Positions 192 to 19,621 of a DNA stretch of 32,000 nucleotides are shown one piece after another. The notes under the pieces were generated by a model. That model worked only from the letters and a program-made list of their open reading frames with translations, did not search any database and had not been told where the DNA came from. The DNA lies in contig NC_005070.1 of assembly GCF_000195975.1 (NCBI RefSeq), positions 1,140,001 to 1,172,000 on the forward strand. The letters run 5' to 3'. Each line of letters opens with the position of its first letter. Within the stretch, counting starts at the first letter, position 1. The position numbers and the translations under genes were made by a program. This DNA comes from Parasynechococcus marenigrum WH 8102. GTDB taxonomy: Bacteria; Cyanobacteriota; Cyanobacteriia; PCC-6307; Cyanobiaceae.

Positions 192-1334
192 TTAGAGATT
201 TTCAGCAGCTCTCAGGATGTCTCTCTTCTGCATCGCAGCTGCATAGGTCCGCATGTGGATGCTGATGTCGTGCCCTGCTGCTTTGGCTGCCACTCCATCA
301 CCAAGCTGGCTTTTCAGGATGGAGCGGATGCACCACGAATGTCTCAGGTTGCTGTTTTCGAGTTTCACCGTTCCACACCATCGGCTCTGAAGCCACTTGT
401 TCATGCGATCGACGTGCCCTTTTGTTTTGTTGCTGTCGTAGGCGACAGGGTCAAGAAACTCATTTGGCCTCTCAACTGTGCAGATTTCGAGGGGTTCAAT
501 CCACTCTTTCGGCAACGCCAGGGCTTCTCGTTGCTCTGGTGGTGCGTTTTTTTGCTTGATACCCAGGACTGATGCAGTCGCACCAGTTTCTGATGGCACC
601 AAGCTGAACACCTCTGACACCCGACATCCGTAGACCAGCAGGGCTGCGAAGCACCAGCCATAAATGCTGGAATGACGGTTGTTCAACGCAAACTCAAACA
701 GCTCTTCGTCTAACGGAAGCTTCGGCACCCTGGTTAGATACTTCGTATGGACCTTGTCGAGTTCTTTAGTTGGCAGCTCGGCAAACTTTGCCAATGCCTT
801 GGCTTTCTGGCAGAACTCGTGGCGCGCCTTGCTCGCTGCTGGTAGTGACTTGGCAACCGCAACAAGTGCCTCAATCGTCAGCAGATCAGACGTGTCAGGA
901 TTTTTCTTGAACGATGCCTCGATTCGATCCCACGTTCGCTTCGCTTGAGACTTCTGGGCCGTAGTGCTGACGTCCCGCTTTTCGTACCAGTCGGCTTTGA
1001 ACCTCGCTGTCCATGCACCAATGGTCTGGCTTTCAGATGGCTCCTCTGGCGCTTGGGTCGTTTCGCCCGATTGAAGCCAGCCGTCCCAGCTGAAGGTGCC
1101 GAGCTTTCTGTCAGTCGAAAGCTTGATCGCCAAAGTCTTGGCGCGATTCAGCCCTGCCTTGGTCGCATCACAACCGGTTGGGACGTCGTATTGAACCTCG
1201 TGGTTGCTCCCATCTTTGTGCGGCAAGACGGCTCTGAGGCAAAGCTTGTTGCGCCGTTGCCGGATTGAGACGCCAGCTTTTTCGGCCTTAAGACCTTGGT
1301 TGACGGCTTTGACGAGATCGCCAACTTCAGACAA
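192..1334 (-). CDS. int: tyrosine recombinase / phage-type integrase (380 aa)
   Basis: C-terminal tyrosine-recombinase signature is visible in the translation: YGCRVSEV (Arg), LRHSWCIRS (His-x-x-Arg), GHDISIHMRTY (His plus Tyr nucleophile). The gene lies 172 nt from the 3' end of tRNA-Ser. The only in-frame start after the upstream stop is TTG at 1334. Confidence 0.85.
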   Translation of the reverse strand: MSEVGDLVKAVNQGLKAEKAGVSIRQRRNKLCLRAVLPHKDGSNHEVQYDVPTGCDATKAGLNRAKTLAIKLSTDRKLGTFSWDGWLQSGETTQAPEEPSESQTIGAWTARFKADWYEKRDVSTTAQKSQAKRTWDRIEASFKKNPDTSDLLTIEALVAVAKSLPAASKARHEFCQKAKALAKFAELPTKELDKVHTKYLTRVPKLPLDEELFEFALNNRHSSIYGWCFAALLVYGCRVSEVFSLVPSETGATASVLGIKQKNAPPEQREALALPKEWIEPLEICTVERPNEFLDPVAYDSNKTKGHVDRMNKWLQSRWCGTVKLENSNLRHSWCIRSILKSQLGDGVAAKAAGHDISIHMRTYAAAMQKRDILRAAENL

Positions 1335-1452
1335 CGAAGCGCGCCCGAAAAGCTACCCCGTTTGCACCGTTGCACAAGGTTCTGGCCAGAGCTGCGATAG
1401 CGGCTGTGTCGGCGGTGCTTCATGCGGCACTTCGCGAGATCCCCTGCAGCGC

Positions 1453-1478
1453 AATAAAAAACCCCGTCAACGACGGGG
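1453..1478 (-). terminator. intrinsic terminator downstream of tRNA-Ser
   Basis: Perfect 7-bp GC-rich stem CCCCGTC/GACGGGG (1462-1468 / 1472-1478) with a 3-nt loop. On the minus strand it is followed by TTTTTTATT. Confidence 0.7.
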
Positions 1479-1505
1479 CTTTGAAGCGGTGGTGACTATC
1501 TGAAA

Positions 1506-1592
1506 CGGAGAGGGTGGGATTCGAACCCACGGTGCCCGTGAAGACACGCTGGTTTTCAAGACCAGAGCCATAAACCACTCGACCACCTCTCC
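1506..1592 (-). tRNA. tRNA-Ser (anticodon UGA), class II with long variable arm, CCA not encoded
   Basis: Minus-strand read: GGAGAGG-TG-GTCGAGTGGTTTATGGC-TCTGGT-CTTGAAA-ACCAG-CGTGTCTTCACGGGCAC-CGTGGGTTCGAATCCCAC-CCTCTCC-G. It has acceptor 7 bp, anticodon stem CTGGT/ACCAG, loop CTTGAAA (anticodon TGA) and T-loop GGTTCGAATCC. Confidence 0.93.
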
Positions 1593-1652
1593 AGGGTGTC
1601 AGCGCCTGAGCGATCAGACGCTGTTCAACTTTAAGTCAGCCGGATGCGACGA

Positions 1653-10979: not shown

Positions 10980-11699
10980 ATGATCTGGATTCAAGCCCTG
11001 CTGCTCAACACCGTCCTGATTGCTGTGGCCCAACGCGCCCCTCTGCTCACCCTTGCCGGCTGGGTTCATGCGGGTGCTCTGGGCACGATTCTCTGGGGTT
11101 GTCTCGGCTGGCGTGGATGGGTGGCTGTGGTGGCCTATCTGGTGCTGGGCAGCCTGGTGACCCGGCTCGGCCTGCGCGAGAAGCAGGAGCGTGGTCTGGC
11201 GGAGGCCCGAGGCGGCCGGCGTGGACCGGAAAATGTCTGGGGATCGGCAGCCACCGGTGCATGTCTCGCCCTCCTGATCGGCGCGGGTGTTGAACCCGGT
11301 CCATTGCTGTTGGTTGGATTCTCGGCAAGTTTTTCCGCCAAGCTGGCCGACACCTTCGGCAGCGAAATCGGCAAGCGCTGGGGCCGGCGGCCGGTGCTGA
11401 TCACAACCCTGCGTTCCGTGCCGCCTGGCACGGAAGGAGCCATCAGCCTGGCGGGAACCCTGGCCAGTGCCGCCGGCAGCGTGCTGATGACCCTGGTGAT
11501 GTGGCAGCTGCAACTGCTGCCATCGATCAGCGTCAGCCTGGTGGTGATGCTGATCGGTCTCCTGGCCACCCTGGCGGAGAGCCTGCTTGGGGCCCTCGCA
11601 CAGGATCGGTTCCGCTGGTTGAGCAATGAACTTGTGAATGCTCTGCAGACCTTGCTGGCCGCCGTTATGGCGATGCTGTGGCTTGGCGGCAGGATCTGA
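10980..11699 (+). CDS. integral membrane protein (multi-span; possibly DUF92/TMEM19-like)
   Basis: Repeated hydrophobic segments throughout. A longer alternative start is at 10929. The family name is from memory only. Confidence 0.6.
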   Translation: MIWIQALLLNTVLIAVAQRAPLLTLAGWVHAGALGTILWGCLGWRGWVAVVAYLVLGSLVTRLGLREKQERGLAEARGGRRGPENVWGSAATGACLALLIGAGVEPGPLLLVGFSASFSAKLADTFGSEIGKRWGRRPVLITTLRSVPPGTEGAISLAGTLASAAGSVLMTLVMWQLQLLPSISVSLVVMLIGLLATLAESLLGALAQDRFRWLSNELVNALQTLLAAVMAMLWLGGRI

Positions 11700-12111
11700 G
11701 CGGCAGCAGACCGTCCTGCTCCGCCCAGTGCTGCAAGAGCTCGATCGCGTTACGGATGGACTTGCGCAGCTGGTGTTGCGGCACGCCGGTGGCTGATGCG
11801 ATGCGTCGCACACTGTCCCCTTCGATGAAGTGCCGCTGCAACAGCTGCCGTTGCTGTGGCTTCAGCAACGCCAGGCCACGGTCCAGCCAGCGGTCCTCAA
11901 GATCGTCGTTCACCGGGTTGGTGGCCTGCTCATGGATGGCGCTGATGGGCACCATGCGTTGCGCTTGCTGACTGCTGCAGGCTTCCTGCCAGCGCTGAAT
12001 CGTGATGTTGAGAGCGTCCGCCAGACGAGCGTCCGACAGGGCCGGCCCACCACGTTGCATTTGCTCCTGCTGCATCGCCTGGCCTTTCACATAGGTGTCC
12101 CGCAGCCGCCT
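11665..12111 (-). pseudogene. sigma-70 family sigma factor, C-terminal half (regions 3-4), detached from its N-terminal half
   Basis: The frame is open from 12111 and reads RRLRDTYVKGQAMQQEQ...PALSDARLADALNIT... then the region-4 HTH LLKPQQRQLLQRHFIEGDSVRRIASATGVPQHQLRKSIRNAIELLQ. An in-frame TGA (12114-12112) sits immediately upstream, where GC content collapses. There is no region 2 and no native start. Confidence 0.85.
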
Positions 12112-12272
12112 TCAGAATGAAGCAGTTCGTGGTGGCTTTGGTGAAGACTGGAAAGCCTACGCTACAAAGAAGTTCCGTGAGGAAGTGACTCAATCATTGG
12201 TTGGTAGTCCAACTATTGGTATTGGTCAGAAAGGGCTAGTTACTGGTCCGTCTAAGCAAGTGGGTTCTAACT

Positions 12273-12596
12273 ATGCCTGCAAGTGAAGACGAGCTGTATT
12301 TGACCTGCAGCGCCTGCGGTTCCATACACACTATCTCAGATGCTGGAGACCTAGAGCTTGTAGAAGATAAGCGACCAGGTGCATCTGGTATTAATGGAAT
12401 CAAGACTACAACAGTAGGTGGTGATACCTGGCAGCAGGATAAATACATCGCTTCGGAACCACAGCAATACCAACCACCTATCACGATGATTGCTGGTGTC
12501 GCTGGTAAACAAAACCAAATCAAAGCAGACCAATCACTGCTAGAAGCATCAAACAAAGATTGGAAATCAAAGAATATCCCTACTGATTTAAAATGA
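12273..12596 (+). CDS. hypothetical protein (107 aa), first gene of coupled trio
   Basis: ATG ORF. Its stop overlaps the next start (ATGA at 12593-12596). It contains a single CSAC motif and has no recognisable family. Confidence 0.55.
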   Translation: MPASEDELYLTCSACGSIHTISDAGDLELVEDKRPGASGINGIKTTTVGGDTWQQDKYIASEPQQYQPPITMIAGVAGKQNQIKADQSLLEASNKDWKSKNIPTDLK

Positions 12597-13048
12597 CTTT
12601 TAACGACAACCACGATGCAGACAATAACGCTACTGCTAATCGAGTTCACTTTGATAGCCAGCTACCCGACATTAATCAACCTAAGAAAAGGAAGTTCACT
12701 GATGTCCTGCCTATCTTGCTGTCCTGTCGTGTTCGTTTGAATGATACACAACGGGAACAGCTGAAGAAGGTATGGCGTGACATTAGGGCTAACGAAGCAC
12801 CACAGCCTATGTCCAATCCAGGCTCCACAGTCCGTAGCTACTCAGCAGCTACTACCACCTCTGCTGAAAAGGCATTGAACACAAGTAGCCTTATCATCTC
12901 TGACTTAATCAGCACTAGAGATACCATTGCATTGACTACCATCATTGAGTTGGAACGAGTGTTTGGTATTGAGTTACTTAGCAAGGAAGCATTTATGGCT
13001 GCAGCCGAGAACTACTATCAATACAACAAAGAAGGTAGGTATGAGTGA
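12593..13048 (+). CDS. hypothetical protein (151 aa); C-terminus weakly HTH-like
   Basis: Translationally coupled on both sides. The C-terminal TIALTTIIELERVFGIELLSKEAF loosely resembles the end of an XRE-type HTH (weak). Confidence 0.55.
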   Translation: MTFNDNHDADNNATANRVHFDSQLPDINQPKKRKFTDVLPILLSCRVRLNDTQREQLKKVWRDIRANEAPQPMSNPGSTVRSYSAATTTSAEKALNTSSLIISDLISTRDTIALTTIIELERVFGIELLSKEAFMAAAENYYQYNKEGRYE

Positions 13049-13343
13049 TAACTACGGGAGTTCTTCTTATAGGCAGTTCAAACCTATCTCATCCACGCTG
13101 AAGGTATCAGCAGGTGAGGCTAAGAACCCTACTGCTAAGCAGCACCTCAATAAGCTGGACTTGCAGCCTCTTACAGAAATAAAGAGAGGAGATAGGTCTA
13201 GCACTCTTTGGAGTAAAAGAAAAGAACTTCAAGCCAAAGGTCAAAGCCTTGGCACCATTGAAACATCATCTATGTATGAACCCGATGCTCTAATTTACGA
13301 ATGTGAGCCAGATGACAACCATATTGATGAAGCAGTGTTCTAA
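13041..13343 (+). CDS. hypothetical protein (100 aa)
   Basis: The ATG at 13041 overlaps the upstream stop by 8 nt (tATGAGTGA). The longer ORF-track start at 12945 lies inside the previous gene. Confidence 0.5.
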   Translation: MSDNYGSSSYRQFKPISSTLKVSAGEAKNPTAKQHLNKLDLQPLTEIKRGDRSSTLWSKRKELQAKGQSLGTIETSSMYEPDALIYECEPDDNHIDEAVF

Positions 13344-13616
13344 CTCTGCTGGAGAGCCTAGCCTCCTCCTTGAATCTTATCTACGGATTCTAAATTGCTC
13401 AAGGCAAACCATTCAGGTTGGTGCATATACACTAACTAGATACTTGAACCTTTAGACTGTACATTCGCAACGTCCGGGATAAGGGTTCTTCAAAGCAGGG
13501 TATAGATACGGACTGAGGAAGGGTGGACCTCACGCTGGTAAGTTTTTTTCTAATTGTCTTGCCATATTTCTTCTAGGTGCAATTCCTAGACTTGCTTTTA
13601 AATACATACACACCAA

Positions 13617-13886
13617 ATGAATACCTACTCATACCTTAAAGCTAATATCGATTCACTATCTCAGCGTTGGCATGATGGACTGAAAGACTTACAAGATATA
13701 ACGCATCCACCATCGAGAGCAGAGCATATCGATTATCTAAATGAAGTTTATATTGAAGCCGCTGAGCTACATGAGTTATGCAGCCAAGAGCTTCACCCTG
13801 TTCTATTAACAAAGCTTGGTCATATTATCTCTAGAGACTTTGATCAACAAATCCAACTATACAAGAAAGTAACTAAAGCCAAATGA
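13617..13886 (+). CDS. hypothetical acidic helical protein (89 aa), first gene of second coupled trio
   Basis: ATG ORF. Its stop overlaps the next ATG (ATGA at 13883-13886). Confidence 0.55.
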   Translation: MNTYSYLKANIDSLSQRWHDGLKDLQDITHPPSRAEHIDYLNEVYIEAAELHELCSQELHPVLLTKLGHIISRDFDQQIQLYKKVTKAK

Positions 13887-14038
13887 ACTATCAACAGCAA
13901 CAGCAACCATTCCCTAAACAATCTAATACCTCTGAAGTTGATGAGATCCTTACCTTTGGTGGCAGTCAATCGTCAGCATTGCTCCAACGTATGCGTCAAC
14001 AAATGCTTGAGAAACTCTCCCAAAAATCAAAGTATTAA
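13883..14038 (+). CDS. unlisted 51-aa Gln-rich ORF (MNYQQQQQPFPKQSNTSEVDEILTFGGSQSSALLQRMRQQMLEKLSQKSKY)
   Basis: Below the ORF-track size cutoff; found by hand translation. It exactly fills the gap between 13886 and 14041, with an ATGA overlap upstream and a 2-nt spacer downstream. Confidence 0.5.
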   Translation: MNYQQQQQPFPKQSNTSEVDEILTFGGSQSSALLQRMRQQMLEKLSQKSKY

Positions 14039-14040
14039 TC

Positions 14041-14361
14041 ATGTATAACCAACCTTCCCGACATACAGGCAAACTCAAGAAAGCTGCTTCTAATCCCTTC
14101 ATTGGATCTGCATCTGGTGGTAGTTCACAAGAGATCAACACTGATGCTAATGGCATGATTTCAGCTTCTAATCCACGTCAAACGCCTTTCAGTCCTGCAT
14201 CAGAGCGTACGTTTGATATGTCTCAGTCAAAGGGTATGAACCAAGCTCAGCAATCCCGTGCAGCAGTTTCAATGCAAACACGTCATCAACAGCAAACGGA
14301 TCGATATATTCCTAAATTATTTCGACACGCTGGCTCTATGCGAATGAAACAGCATTTCTAA
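14041..14361 (+). CDS. hypothetical Ser/Gln-rich, probably disordered protein (106 aa)
   Basis: The ATG lies 2 nt after the preceding stop. Low-complexity polar composition. Confidence 0.5.
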   Translation: MYNQPSRHTGKLKKAASNPFIGSASGGSSQEINTDANGMISASNPRQTPFSPASERTFDMSQSKGMNQAQQSRAAVSMQTRHQQQTDRYIPKLFRHAGSMRMKQHF

Positions 14362-14548
14362 AAAAACAAGTACATCGTTAGATTGTTTCGCCTACAAACT
14401 AATATCGATAAGCGCCTTAAGCAGTCGACCAGGCGAATATAAAGGAATAAGGCTTTGTGGCTAATGAATTACTTTCTAGCATTAAAAATAATCTAAAAAC
14501 GAAGCCTTCACAGATCTACCAGTTTCTCAAGCTCTGCCAAATAAATTC

Positions 14549-14569
14549 AAAAAACAGTTCAAAGAACTG
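14549..14569 (-). terminator. intrinsic terminator after the radical SAM gene
   Basis: Minus-strand CAGTTC-TTT-GAACTG hairpin (14555-14569) followed by TTTTTT (14549-14554). It lies about 40 nt downstream of the stop at 14611. Confidence 0.6.
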
Positions 14570-14610
14570 AAACGCATTTAAAACCTCCAAAATTTCTTTA
14601 AAAATAAAGA

Positions 14611-15651
14611 CTATCTTTTAGGCAGCAGATCTTTGAAAGTAAGAGGTTGATAAAATTCACATTTTTTGCAAGGCGAAAGTTCTCCGCTGCTGAAATCATT
14701 AAGCACACTTTCTCTCCATTTACGCAAGGATGCGCGAAAGTTTTCATTATTTACGTTGCAAATTACCTGACTCAAGGAATAATCATGGCAACATATATTG
14801 ACATTGCCATTACCCAGCACAACTGGTTGGCTGCCAAACTTTTTGACAATACACTTTTTGGCAGGCAACGGAATCTCGAGCAGAATAATAGGCCTAAAAA
14901 ATACATAGATTCGCTTCAGCGATTGTTTTATCAGCGTAGCTACTTGAGACTTAGACTTATATTTCCATAACTTTCTAAAATAGAGTGAATCTACACCAGA
15001 AGACCTAGAGCTAAGTTTTCGATGGCGAGACATACCAGCAAAGAGATGAGACTTGTTGGCGAGTATTTCTTCTATTTGTGGATGAAAAGATGGTCCAAAA
15101 GTTAGAGCTCTTAGCTCTACTCCATTATGGCTAGATCTTTCAAAGTCGTCTAAAAATCTTGCCAAAGTAGTCAAGTAGCTATCATCAACTTGCAGCACGC
15201 CATCTTCCATTAATCCAGCATCATCAGGAAGATGCAAGCCAATACTTTTAAAAAAAGAAGGGTTATTTGCTATGAAATCTATATTATACGGAAATCCTGT
15301 AAGAGTGGTAGAAATTTGCTGCTCGAGCTTAAGATCTGCACAATGTTGAGCCATAGCCGAGAAGTCCTTATTAGCACAGGGTTCTGAATAGCCAGTCCAA
15401 TGGATATTGAGTGTGGGATAATCATGAAAATTTTTCAAGTAGCATTTAAAATTATCTAAAGTGATTGACTTATTGTTTATATTTTTGAACTTAAGGCTGG
15501 ATTTGCGCAATGTCTCCTGAGGACAATATTTACACCTAACACCACAAGCAGGTGTTGTTGTAAACTCAATATGATATTTACTGTCTTCATCTGAATCAAT
15601 AGAATGTTCTAAACTTTTTTGGCGAATGAAAGAAAGAATTTTTTCCTTCAT
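14611..15651 (-). CDS. radical SAM enzyme with Cys-rich C-terminal (SPASM/twitch-like) extension, 346 aa
   Basis: Canonical CxxxCxxC cluster motif ACGVRCKYCPQ near the N-terminus, and WTGYSEP in the position of the GGE SAM-binding motif. The C-terminus GNGNVNICCHDYSLSQVICNV...SPCKKCEFY resembles auxiliary-cluster domains. AAGGA Shine-Dalgarno about 8 nt upstream of the ATG. Confidence 0.8.
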   Translation of the reverse strand: MKEKILSFIRQKSLEHSIDSDEDSKYHIEFTTTPACGVRCKYCPQETLRKSSLKFKNINNKSITLDNFKCYLKNFHDYPTLNIHWTGYSEPCANKDFSAMAQHCADLKLEQQISTTLTGFPYNIDFIANNPSFFKSIGLHLPDDAGLMEDGVLQVDDSYLTTLARFLDDFERSSHNGVELRALTFGPSFHPQIEEILANKSHLFAGMSRHRKLSSRSSGVDSLYFRKLWKYKSKSQVATLIKQSLKRIYVFFRPIILLEIPLPAKKCIVKKFGSQPVVLGNGNVNICCHDYSLSQVICNVNNENFRASLRKWRESVLNDFSSGELSPCKKCEFYQPLTFKDLLPKR

Positions 15652-15889
15652 GACTATCCTTTTTACATATCATACCATTCGTCAATAGTTCTAGACGGGC
15701 AGGATAGACAATTCGGTAACTGTAACCTTGTGCGTAGAGAATACAGCAGGCTCTGGCACCCACCTATGACACCTTCTGGCACCTTAGAGACGGTATAGTA
15801 ATGGCATACGGGAGCAAGCAACAAGCTAAATATCAATAATGCACTGGCACTACTCAACGCAGATACTGCACATCAAATCACTACAAACC

Positions 15890-15905
15890 ATATTGACATA
15901 TTGAC
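15890..15905 (+). repeat. tandem 8-mer ATATTGAC x2, sharing the 11-mer ATTGACATATT with the right arm of the element
   Basis: Read directly. ATTGACATATT is at 15892-15902 and again at 18041-18051. The site lies about 240 nt upstream of the radical SAM start. Confidence 0.6.
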
Positions 15906-16100
15906 CACCAAACACAGCAAGAACTTTCTAGGGCGGCTGGATAATTAGTATAAGTTAGTTGCACGACACGAGCTTAAAAATAACGCCGAATCCTAGGCAT
16001 CATTCAATTCAGCAAGCAGTGCGATTACAGCACTCATAGACAAGCTATGATCAATGCATTCGCTGTCTTGCCTGATGCCTCATATACAACATAAGTGCAT

Positions 16101-16223
16101 ATGGAGTATAGACAAAAGCTAATCAAGCTACTAGCTGAACTACAAGCTAATAACAAATCTCCTGACATTATTGCGTCTGTTCAAAAAGCAATAGCAGAGA
16201 TAGATAAGAGACAGAACGACTGA
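16101..16223 (+). CDS. possible 40-aa helical ORF (MEYRQKLIKLLAELQANNKSPDIIASVQKAIAEIDKRQND)
   Basis: Hand-translated ATG ORF ending 44 nt before a hairpin plus T-run. No Shine-Dalgarno and no family. Confidence 0.3.
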   Translation: MEYRQKLIKLLAELQANNKSPDIIASVQKAIAEIDKRQND

Positions 16224-16266
16224 CACTCCTGGCATTGAGAGTCTTGCTCATCTAAGTCCAGGCATG

Positions 16267-16309
16267 GCAGTGAATGGCTGAAGGTTCGATTCCTTCCACT
16301 GCTGTTTTT
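16267..16309 (+). other. tRNA-derived minihelix (acceptor-like stem plus canonical T-arm) followed by a T-run; not a complete tRNA
   Basis: GCAGTG-AATGGCT-GAAGG-TTCGATT-CCTTC-CACTGC-TG-TTTTT. The T stem-loop GAAGGTTCGATTCCTTC matches the tRNA T-arm consensus. No D arm or anticodon arm could be built upstream. Confidence 0.55.
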
Positions 16310-16542
16310 CAAGACAAGACAACCTAATAACAACGACTATTTACAATAAAGAATACCTCAATGAGCTAATTAATTCTGGTATTGCTCTTAACGATAAAGA
16401 GACTGCAATTATAGAACAATACCTTTTCGACAACTCCGAATACTATTACCCAAAAGGCTACTCCATACCTTCTGATGTATTGAGCGATAAACGGCTCAAA
16501 CCACTGGCATCTGGTGCTGTTAAAAAGGCTAGGAGGCGTTGA
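16282..16542 (+). pseudogene. 86-codon open frame with no start codon, beginning inside the tRNA-like element and ending 1 nt before the HNH gene
   Basis: Hand translation: ...TTIYNKEYLNELINSGIALNDKETAIIEQYLFDNSEYYYPKGYSIPSDVLSDKRLKPLASGAVKKARRR*. It looks protein-like, but there is no ATG or GTG and only a late TTG. Possibly a 5'-truncated gene. Confidence 0.35.
16531..16536 (+). promoter_or_regulatory. Shine-Dalgarno AGGAGG for the HNH-like gene
   Basis: AGGAGG lies 7 nt upstream of the ATG at 16544. This supports 16544 rather than the GTG at 16514 as the start. Confidence 0.7.
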
Positions 16543-16543
16543 A

Positions 16544-17080
16544 ATGAAGAAGGTAATAGATACTGTTACTCATACAGATAAAAAAGGTAAAACAGTTAAA
16601 CAACACATTATTCAGTGTGATTCTTGCGGTAGACATACCAAGGCTCCAACCACTCCAAAAGCTCTAAGGAATAAACTTAATTCTCGTTGTGTTTGTGGTG
16701 TCCTTGGTTCAGCACCTCAATCCATACCTGAATGTCGCGGTCAAGATGGTAGAAGTTATCATCCTCTATATAATACTTACAAGGTCATGATTCAACGTTG
16801 CTATAATGAATCAGCTTTCTGCTATGAAAGATATGGTGGACGTGGTATCACTGTCTGCCAAGAATGGCTTAACGACTTCTGGATGTTTGTTTATCATATG
16901 GGTGAACGACCTGAAGGAAAAACTTTTGATAGAGTTGACAATGACTATATCTATTGTCCTGAAAACTGTCGTTGGGCTACTCCATTAGAGCAGGCTCATA
17001 ACAGGTCAAATCCGCCAATGACTGATGAAGAAGTAGAAGCTGCTATAGCACGTCAACGCCAATCAAAACGTGAATGGTAG
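16544..17080 (+). CDS. phage-type HNH-like nuclease-fold protein with N-terminal zinc ribbon (178 aa)
   Basis: CDSCGRH...CVCG zinc ribbon. YNTYKVMIQRCYNESAFCYERYGGRGITVCQEW followed by FDRVDNDYIYCPENCRWATPLEQAHNRS, a pattern I associate with free-standing phage HNH/AP2-like endonucleases. Confidence 0.65.
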   Translation: MKKVIDTVTHTDKKGKTVKQHIIQCDSCGRHTKAPTTPKALRNKLNSRCVCGVLGSAPQSIPECRGQDGRSYHPLYNTYKVMIQRCYNESAFCYERYGGRGITVCQEWLNDFWMFVYHMGERPEGKTFDRVDNDYIYCPENCRWATPLEQAHNRSNPPMTDEEVEAAIARQRQSKREW

Positions 17081-17569
17081 GAACGTAGCAAACATCTCTA
17101 CGAATGGTGTCCTCATAAAAGAACTTACATCAAGCTGTAGAAGCTCCTGTAAGGCTGTTTAGAGTGGTCTCTAGGGTATTTATCCTGTTGACCACTTTTA
17201 ACGGCTTCTAGGCTTATTTATGCACCAATAACCTAGTAAAAATACCAAAAAAAATAATTTCAAATGAAGTCGATAAGATTTGCCAGAGATGCGTCAGCCC
17301 ATATATCGATGGTATTGGGCGCAATTTCCTCCCCATGCACCCATCTAAGCGCTGGAGATTGGCGACTTGGGTGAAAACACACCTATGTATCGCGCGAGTG
17401 CGCCTGCGATATCTAGGCGCGGCTGAAGAGGTAACTAAATCAAACCTAGCCTTACGGACGGAAGTCACTACTTCTGCAGCTGGTGGTGGCTGCACAGCTG
17501 TAGGATTTTTTTGCACGCCAGACTGACAATCTAGGCGTAACTAGGTAGGCTTCAAGCTATGACTGGTTT

Positions 17570-17603
17570 GATTGATCAGCACATACTCAGTCACTGATCA
17601 ATC
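17570..17603. repeat. perfect 10-bp inverted repeat GATTGATCAG / CTGATCAATC with 14-nt spacer
   Basis: Read directly (17570-17579 and 17594-17603). It abuts the CATACCAACAT motif at 17604-17614. Confidence 0.8.
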
Positions 17604-18031
17604 CATACCAACATGGGTTGAGATAGCAGTGATGCAGTGAGCTGCTGCACTCACTATCGGACTGGTATGAATCAAGGGATGTAGGCACCGTGCTTACTGC
17701 TCATCCATGCTGTAGATGCCAAGCGGAGTTACGCACGGAGTGCAAGTAACGGAGCGGATACAACACTGTTGATATCTATCTAATGATTGTTATTATCTAC
17801 TTATATTGATTGCATCTGGTTTTATTGCTAACTGTTTTGTGCAATATTTATACTAAACCGTGCAATTTACGTGCCTTTTGCCCATATTTTAGTAGTGCAT
17901 CGGTAGCGAAAGAATAGAGAGCTAAATACTTGGCAAAGTATCACTAACTGTTCATTGGAAAACTAAAGAGTATTCATTCAATCCAGATGCACCGATCCTT
18001 GCTGACCTTGTATCGGCTTGGTATAGAGGCT

Positions 18032-18051
18032 CATACCAACATTGACATATT
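18032..18051 (+). repeat. composite 20-mer CATACCAACATTGACATATT whose halves recur elsewhere in the element
   Basis: CATACCAACAT is exact at 17604-17614 and 18032-18042. ATTGACATATT is exact at 15892-15902 and 18041-18051. Related (C)ATACCA / TGGTAT units are at 15671, 17663, 18018, 18064, 18075, 18091, and in opposite orientation at the left end (12197-12207, 12216-12222). Confidence 0.75.
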
Positions 18052-18131
18052 AACAGGGATCGACATACCAAGTCCATACCAGGCAGTGGGTATGGTGCAA
18101 ACGACAGACTGTCACTAGGGAGCTTGAAAAG

Positions 18132-18434
18132 CCAGGGCACCCGAATCGTGACGGCCCGATCGCGCCGGAAGTGAAGCACCTGTCCGTTGGTGGCCGTGCT
18201 CAGGAATGTTGAGAGTTTAAGACCGCGCCGTGGATCAAACCGCTCCCAGCCACGAATCAACCCAACACGGGCCTCCTGCTCGAGATCGTCCCGCTCCTTT
18301 GGTCCCCGTCGGGTCTGGCGCGAGGCAATCATCCCGGCGATGCCGAGGTGATTGAGAACCTTGATGTTGCGTTGGCGAACTGCAGGGGGAAGAGCCCTCC
18401 GCAGCTCACGTCGCTGCCATCCGGATGTGGTCAT
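18132..18434 (-). pseudogene. sigma-70 family sigma factor, N-terminal half (region 2), truncated by the insertion
   Basis: From the ATG at 18434: MTTSGWQRRELRRALPPAVRQRNIKVLNHLGIAGMIASRQ...DDLEQEARVGLIRGWERFDPRRGLKLSTFLSTATNGQVLHFRRDRAVTIRVPW. These are regions 2.1-2.4 (GLIxxxERFDPxxG, RDxxxxIRVP). The frame then runs into AT-rich island sequence for 59 unrelated codons, to the stop at 17952. Confidence 0.85.
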
Positions 18435-18946: not shown

Positions 18947-19621
18947 TCAGTCACCCAAGGACAGGTGTTGTTGTGGTCGGGGCAACAATTCCGCCCAGGT
19001 CTGCAGGGCCGTCCAGCCGCGGATTCGCCGGTGGATGAAGTGGTGCCCCTCGCCATTGAGATGAAGGCCATCGGGTTCCATCCAGGTCAGCCAGTCCGGC
19101 TCCTCCAGCATGGATCGGTGCAGTGGCAGAAAGGGGATGTCGGCGTCGCGACAGGTTTCGGCCAACACGGCTTCATGGGCCGCCACATCCTCATTGCTGC
19201 ACCAGAGACAGTCCGCAAAGGGCATGACGTGCTCATCCACTGGCGTCAGACCGATCACCAGCACCTGCGTCTCCGCTTTCATCTCGTTGAGCAGCTGCCC
19301 CATGCCGAAGCCATAGGCCTCAAGGTTCAGTTGCTAGCGACCATCCGGCCGACCCACCCGTGCGGTGTCGTTGAGTCCGACGGCCAGCAGTACACCCTCC
19401 GGGGTCTGACGCCGCAGCTCGCCGCGACACTGCCACTCGCTACGCCAGCGAGCGGCCACCCGTTCCAATCCATCGCCACGGATGCCCAGGGGGTAAACCA
19501 CCGGAGCCGCCTGCAGCTGCATCCAGTTCCTGCGCAGACGCTCGCACCATCCCCCGGCCTCTCGATCTCCCCAGCCGTACACCCCGCTATCCCCGATCAC
19601 CAGCAGCTGCTTGGGTTTCAT
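18947..19621 (-). pseudogene. SGNH/GDSL-family hydrolase interrupted by one in-frame TAG (19336-19334)
   Basis: The upstream part has block I LLVIGDSGVYGWGD and block III LLAVGLNDTARVG. After the TAG the same frame continues QLNLEAYGFGMGQLLNEM... to block V PDGLHLNGEGH. The two ORF-track ORFs (19334-19741 and 18947-19303) are in the same frame. The ATG at 19621 overlaps the phnE stop. Confidence 0.75.

Follow-up and report, generated by a model that had tools for sequence, protein, structure and literature searches.

A low-GC block that splits a SigF-like sigma factor gene of Parasynechococcus marenigrum WH 8102 is probably a truncated, recombinase-less piece of an integrative island

The genome of Parasynechococcus marenigrum WH 8102 is a single contig of 2,434,428 bp, and the window analysed in this work is the stretch of 32,000 nucleotides that runs from position 1,140,001 to position 1,172,000. 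In this window we have found a gene for a SigF-like sigma-70 factor that is split in two by an inserted block of 6,020 bp. The guanine-cytosine (GC) profile, which stays at ~0.62-0.65 in the flanks, falls to 0.37-0.47 between ~12100 and ~18100, the block having ~40% GC versus 62%. The two halves of the gene, the block and the short repeat around it are located as follows (in window positions, as are all coordinates below unless otherwise indicated):

11665-12110, minus strand: C-terminal half of the SigF-like sigma-70 gene, region 3/4 (Pfam Sigma70_r4/r4_2)
12108-12110: left copy of GCC, 3 bp (from the sequence)
12111-18130: inserted low-GC block, 6,020 bp (GC profile, junction mapping and end comparison)
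18131-18133: right copy of GCC, 3 bp (junction alignment)
18131-18434, minus strand: N-terminal half of the SigF-like sigma gene, region 2 (Pfam Sigma70_r2, E 5.6e-11)

The limits of the block come from a DNA alignment against the intact orthologue of the closest relative (genome G009; 248 amino acids, L002:1057-1803 on the minus strand), which places the junctions at 12110/12111 and 18130/18131. The best NCBIfam matches of this intact orthologue are SigF-type models, and the neighbourhood is the same in both genomes, with a DUF92 gene, the sigma gene and an SGNH hydrolase gene. The hydrolase orthologue of G009 is intact, with 223 amino acids, and the window copy is found at 18947-19621. As regards the sigma gene, the N-terminal half is 81% identical to the G009 protein, and the C-terminal half is collinear with residues ~102-248 of it. 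The frame of the N-terminal half enters the island for 59 codons up to a stop at 17952-17954. On the coding strand there are two GGC units in the intact orthologue versus three in the window halves together, and when one GCC copy is removed the two halves fuse in an uninterrupted frame that reads IRVPWRLRD across the joint, as in all orthologues. The GCC on both sides is the only repeat that brackets the block, and these three bases could be a target-site duplication, a microhomology or a chance identity. At the block ends there are neither direct repeats longer than 3 bp nor terminal inverted repeats, the best end-to-end inverted match being reached by 24 of 300 shuffles. The SigF-like gene seems to be decaying repeatedly in the genus, and because the orthologue is frameshifted or truncated in three other genomes (L003 in G006, L004 in G021 and L007 in G019) it looks dispensable, so that an insertion that knocks it out would be tolerable. 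We found no paper in the literature on this split sigma gene.

The block itself carries the features listed below, among which there are six small open reading frames (ORFs; o107, o151, o132, o89, o51 and o106) of 107, 151, 132, 89, 51 and 106 amino acids, respectively:

12111-12286, plus strand: C-terminal remnant of the first operon gene (115 amino acids when complete), ~53 codons, with no start of its own (BLASTP and synteny)
12273-12596, plus strand: o107, small conserved protein with an N-terminal CxxC (homologues and synteny)
12593-13048, plus strand: o151, helix-turn-helix (HTH) protein of the XRE/lambda-repressor type, probably a regulator (profile, AlphaFold and fold matches)
13041-13343, plus strand: o132, third operon gene, whose probable start is the ATG at 13041 (homologues)
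13617-14361, plus strand: second small operon, with o89 (13617-13886), o51 (13883-14038) and o106 (14041-14361) (ORFs)
14611-15651, minus strand: radical SAM protein, cargo (weak Pfam matches, NCBIfam)
16095-16223: ORF of 42 amino acids (ORF listing)
16270-16312, plus strand: tRNA-like minihelix of T-arm and acceptor, not a full tRNA (sequence)
16282-16542, plus strand: startless small ORF (homologues of a 53-amino-acid island ORF)
16514-17080, plus strand: HNH-like protein of the phage homing-endonuclease type, with an N-terminal zinc ribbon (phrog_374)
17081-18130: right arm of 1,050 bp without a credible gene (only short unsupported frames)

An earlier note, made from these nucleotides alone, had described the same ORFs and ~1 kb of non-coding DNA, and this inventory stands except that it missed the remnant of a seventh gene at 12111-12286. 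The same note had claimed that no recombinase or transposase can be recognised in the block, and both the profile scans of the ORFs and the six-frame scans bear this out. The ten main ORFs were compared with Pfam, PHROGs, NCBIfam and PADLOC, and ten more small or stop-to-stop frames with Pfam only, and no tyrosine recombinase, serine recombinase or DDE transposase was detected among them; the only meaningful matches were a weak one to radical SAM/SPASM and a strong one to phrog_374. Primases, helicases and excisionases were likewise absent from the block according to these four profile libraries. In six-frame scans of the whole genome, the tyrosine-integrase model PF00589 was found at ~12 loci and the resolvase model PF00239 at 2 loci, none of them inside the block, and rve (PF00665) and DDE_Tnp_1 (PF01609) had no match anywhere in the genome, the other transposase families being searched on ORFs only.

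The left end of the block lies inside a gene. The segment 12111-12286 aligns to residues 63-113 only of a protein of 115 amino acids from genome G338 (L040:13080-13427; BLASTP E 9e-6), and it keeps the overlap between its stop and the start of o107, as in G338; the ORF that is listed over it begins at a GTG in host DNA. The gene is present at full length in G338, G406, G243, G203 and G368, and as a partial match in G394 (residues 39-112, E 0.003). The missing N-terminal half is found nowhere else in the WH 8102 genome. As the first gene of a conserved backbone is cut at the left junction, the block would be the integrase-distal part of a larger island and not a complete element with two termini.

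This backbone was recognized in a survey of 401 genomes of the family, that is, the source genome and 400 others. The o151 profile matches 11 of the 401, and a conserved string formed by the 115-amino-acid gene, o107, the XRE-type gene o151, o132 and o89 corresponds to the left 2.2 kb of the block. This string is syntenic with genomes G338, G243, G203 and G368: o107 homologues sit after the 115-amino-acid gene and before o151 in G243 and G338, in G203 and G368 the homologue of o151 is immediately followed by one of o132 (36-38% identity by tblastn), and a homologue of o89 (E 1.5e-9) occupies the same relative place in the G338 island. In the complete islands, which are 15-17 kb long, have attachment (att) repeats of 11-55 bp and are sited in ssrS or in a comM-like gene, the string lies ~10 kb from a tyrosine integrase and variable cargo follows beyond it. 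Two of them, in G243 (L039:2452-18080) and G338 (L040:1800-18802), are low-GC islands of 15.5-17 kb with the tyrosine integrase at one end, bracketed by direct repeats of 54-55 bp, which correspond to the 3' end of the gene for 6S RNA (Rfam RF00013, 94-98 bits); in picocyanobacteria, ssrS seems to be used as an attachment site. The third one, from the same genus as WH 8102 (G203, L038:1681-18496), is a low-GC island of 16.8 kb that splits a comM/yifB-like Mg-chelatase gene at its Walker-B codons, with an 11-bp direct repeat (TTCTCGACGAG); it encodes a tyrosine integrase and a T7-like single-subunit RNA polymerase (PF00940, 885 amino acids), and it contains four tandem 83-nt repeats. Finally, a 9-kb island in G368 (L032) is syntenic with the G203-type island and carries a T7-like RNA polymerase, but it has no integrase.

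All these data suggest that the block is a truncated, non-autonomous piece of a tycheposon-like integrative island, stranded in the sigma gene as a fixed scar, and we consider this the probable explanation. Its lack of a recombinase would follow from its being just the far end of a larger island that bears an integrase, and with both the integrase and its att sites absent the block would be unable to excise itself. The truncation at the left end, the lack of a recombinase, end repeats of no more than 3 bp, the single copy of the block and the intact sigma orthologues of other genomes are the observations that carry this interpretation, and the integrase-less island of G368 is a further support, as such versions do exist elsewhere. 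The att repeats of the islands compared here measure 11, 13, 54-55 or 63 bp, versus 3 bp at the block. A dead scar was one of the three explanations left standing by the earlier note, and it can now be stated more sharply as the integrase-distal part of an island whose left end cuts a backbone gene. The 6 kb retained would extend from the middle of the 115-amino-acid gene through the cargo, which would comprise the radical SAM enzyme, the start-less small ORF and the HNH gene of phage type, together with 1 kb that is non-coding, and the scar would inactivate a dispensable SigF-like sigma gene. Regarding its entry, a fragment of foreign DNA could have been joined at a short staggered break or through the 3-bp microhomology, or an active element that was lost afterwards could have brought the block in as its passenger; clean junctions that share only GCC would fit both routes.

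The distribution of the block is in agreement with a fixed fragment. It is single-copy in the genome, and a search of 400 other genomes of the family gave no match to it at the DNA level apart from one small-ORF piece. There was no DNA match in phage records either, and no relatives were found in the JGI metagenome contigs (by alignments of the radical SAM protein and o151), in the IMG/VR viral contigs or in the GTDB species representatives (by a pattern scan). The contigs of four sequencing runs contained the integrated form and no excised or joined one; the runs are probably of the source strain and would then not be independent, and contigs drop rare variants.

Several points weigh against this explanation. 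The homology of the remnant amounts to 29% identity over 52 residues, together with synteny. The sigma halves are perfectly intact and in frame, which random illegitimate insertion does not predict, although a recent event would also give intact halves. A clean 3-bp duplication without loss of target is more typical of staggered cuts made by an enzyme than of microhomology joining. Excision was looked for in assembled contigs only, and these hide rare variants. Furthermore, the close relatives of single proteins lie on metagenome contigs (91% identity for o107, 77-83% for o151 and 78% for the radical SAM protein), and the true parent element was not seen.

Some of these features could be accounted for if the 6 kb had come attached to an integrase-bearing element that integrated in the sigma gene and then excised precisely, leaving its passenger behind. 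Such a model has been published for tycheposons, the passenger route being proposed there for the growth of Prochlorococcus islands (bioRxiv 10.1101/2020.12.28.424599), and it would explain why the block has no integrase, why its junctions with the host are exact and why its left end lies within a gene of the element. Relatives of the block do integrate in protein-coding genes, as shown by comM in G203. However, neither junction has an att-like scar longer than 3 bp, the junctions are unlike any att core recovered here and the sigma site is used by no other island seen; we regard this course of events as rather unlikely.

The earlier note had also proposed that the block is mobilised in trans and pointed to the integrase at 192-1334. 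This ORF of 380 amino acids, which the integrase models of Pfam and NCBIfam fail to detect, is a divergent tyrosine integrase that has the box II and RTY motifs and whose paralogue matches PF00589. It belongs to a 14.3-kb island with a 63-bp repeat of the 3' part of tRNA-Ser(TGA) (genome 1,127,218-1,127,280; window 192-1593). Two apparent likenesses between the block and this tRNA-Ser were discarded: the whole-island alignment was equalled by 14 of 200 shuffles, and an 8-mer that the right junction shares with the tRNA-Ser att site is at chance level, as it is found in 8-9% of random 40-mers. A further low-GC island, of 5.95 kb, is found at genome positions 2,138,899-2,144,873. It lies at the 3' end of a radA-like gene between the two copies of a perfect 13-bp repeat (ACGTCTACTTCTG), and its inward-facing tyrosine integrase shares 44% identity with the integrase of the G203 island; neither this 13-bp core nor the 11-bp core of G203 occurs at the block junctions above chance. 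In addition, there are two low-GC elements with one large serine recombinase each (L017, genome 1,087,001-1,106,000, and L018, genome 1,331,001-1,350,000), and the block ends show no resemblance to the junction zones of these two elements. One of the two elements has Prim-Pol/VapE and an HK97-type capsid gene, adjoins typA and looks like a phage satellite, and the other has DUF3987, CoiA-like and T5orf172 genes.

Mobility in trans would mean that one of these recombinases (the tRNA-Ser integrase at 192-1334, the G203-type integrase at 2.139 Mb or either of the two large serine recombinases) acts on the block ends and that excision restores the sigma gene. The perfect frame of the joined sigma halves would fit such a role, as would junctions that share only 2-3 bp, as large serine recombinases need, and the genome has tyrosine recombinases at ~12 loci and two of the large serine type, one of the resident integrases having the 44% identity to that of the G203 island mentioned above. 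Nevertheless, the left end is a broken gene and not a conserved terminus, the ends are unlike the serine-element junction zones, the tRNA-Ser att site and the 13-bp and 11-bp cores, and there is no second copy and no joined form in the contigs of the four runs. The proposal that the block is mobilised in trans therefore finds no support, and we judge a non-autonomous but mobile block to be improbable. A stronger version, in which the fragment has been stripped down to a non-autonomous element whose precise excision by a resident recombinase is still possible and would switch the SigF-like sigma factor back on in a subpopulation, seems to us very unlikely; if true, it would be a unicellular, trans-acting analogue of the skin/sigK switch.

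The third possibility left by the earlier note was that a mobility factor of a new kind is to be found among the small proteins or in the HNH-like protein. The protein o107 has homologues in eight metagenome clusters (57-91% identity), and no family match was found for o107, o89, o51 or o106 in Pfam, PHROGs, NCBIfam or PADLOC. In the case of o151, whose metagenome homologues show 77-83% identity, a profile search of 1.84 billion representatives yielded a family of 87 representatives, and the profile matches HipB (E 0.016). Its AlphaFold model reached a predicted local distance difference test score (pLDDT) of 84 with a deep alignment (37 when built from 5 sequences), and it matched 34 chains at Z ≥ 5 (top 5-6.6), nearly all of them HTH proteins of the XRE/cI type, with root-mean-square deviations of 2.2-3.2 over 54-68 residues, matches of Z < 8 being taken as moderate. 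Because of the HipB match and these fold matches, o151 is taken as an HTH protein of the XRE/lambda-repressor type, with its five-helix fold, and is probably a regulator.

The HNH-like ORF (188 amino acids) matches phrog_374 with an E of 4e-40 and has homologues in 1,038 phage records, one of which lies under a group I intron annotation, with some lying under genes for DNA polymerase. It has no Pfam or PDB sequence match, and its sequence does not clearly show the histidine that comes first in the usual HNH motif. No intron or other RNA family of Rfam was detected in the block at E up to 1, and the host sigma frame is broken by stops, leaving no intein frame around the HNH gene.

A new integration or excision enzyme of the block could in principle hide among these proteins, since no family could be detected for five of the small ORFs, the structural model of o107 is poor and the HNH-like protein could cut DNA. 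However, in the complete relatives the small genes travel with an ordinary tyrosine integrase and att repeats and are therefore not needed to explain integration, o151 is an XRE-type HTH protein, the HNH gene is not conserved across the island family and belongs to a common phage family of homing-endonuclease-like proteins, and there is no sign that the unit ever moved. A new mobility factor is for these reasons highly improbable, and the truncated island is the interpretation that we retain.

Beyond the backbone, the radical SAM protein has a CxxxCxxC motif and a Cys-rich SPASM/twitch-like C-terminus, with weak Pfam Radical_SAM/SPASM matches and an NCBIfam spiro-SPASM match at E 6.7e-8, and only two homologue clusters (78% and 45% identity) were found for it among 5.8 billion proteins. 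The startless ORF at 16282-16542 has homologues that begin with an ATG in G409 and G203, and a DNA alignment shows a 5-nt gap over the start in WH 8102, which indicates that the ATG is lost here through a 5-nt deletion and would represent further decay. The minihelix at 16270-16312 has a textbook T-arm and a 6-bp acceptor-like stem; ARAGORN finds no tRNA in it, it matches none of the 45 tRNAs of the genome and it is not conserved upstream of the small-ORF homologues of G203 or G409. It could be what is left of a foreign tRNA or of an old att site. The right arm (17081-18130) contains no Rfam family and shows no similarity to the distal ends of the related islands; as these islands do not resemble each other there either, the comparison carries no information. 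A small-ORF match to G294 at the right end of the block dissolved at the DNA level.

With these results, an orphan island in the genome of a model marine Synechococcus is now tied to a family of integrative islands. This family, whose targets (the 6S RNA gene and a comM-like gene) are unusual and which has a T7-like RNA polymerase in two of its members, is probably more interesting than the fragment itself. In turn, the clean insertion of a fragment inside a gene, with 3 bp shared, is a useful case of how flexible genes may enter streamlined ocean genomes without ordinary transposons.

Several known systems resemble the block in part. The skin element in sigK of Bacillus and the nifD, fdxN and hupL elements of Anabaena are intervening elements that are excised during development; they encode their own recombinases (SpoIVCA, XisA, XisF and XisC) and excise in a terminally differentiated cell. 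As in these elements, a multi-kb block splits a gene, in this case a sigma gene, whose halves rejoin in frame, but the block encodes no recombinase, shows no excised form in contigs, resides in a unicellular host and has a broken left end, so the resemblance to skin/sigK is superficial. Like the HNH homing endonucleases of phages, the HNH-like ORF matches phrog_374, but unlike in intron-borne HNH units no intron RNA was detected around the gene. Moreover, homing copies a gene between homologous alleles and cannot account for the new insertion of 6 kb into a sigma gene. The block also differs from DDE transposons and insertion sequences in having neither terminal inverted repeats nor a transposase match. 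The comM/yifB gene is a known insertion hot spot for integrative islands, and the relative in G203, which splits a comM-like gene, shows that this island family can target coding sequence; in contrast to comM-type islands, the block has no integrase, and its sigma target shares nothing with the comM core.

The closest comparison is with the tycheposons. Like them, the block is low in GC, strain-specific and found in a marine picocyanobacterium, and in its complete relatives a tyrosine integrase faces inwards from one end, with att repeats and distal cargo also present. The relatives differ from tycheposons in that they target ssrS and comM, not tRNAs, and in that two of them, G203 and the integrase-less G368, have a T7-like RNA polymerase in the place expected for a primase or helicase. 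Compared with an autonomous tycheposon-like island, the block has no integrase, att repeats or hallmark genes, and what it shares is the order of the backbone genes. Degenerated, integrase-less fragments of tycheposon-type islands have been described and are reported as common in Prochlorococcus islands (Hackl et al., bioRxiv 10.1101/2020.12.28.424599). Unlike those fragments, the block is a clean insertion in a protein-coding gene and not part of a tRNA-adjacent island: degenerated fragments are already known, but in tRNA-adjacent islands rather than inside a gene.

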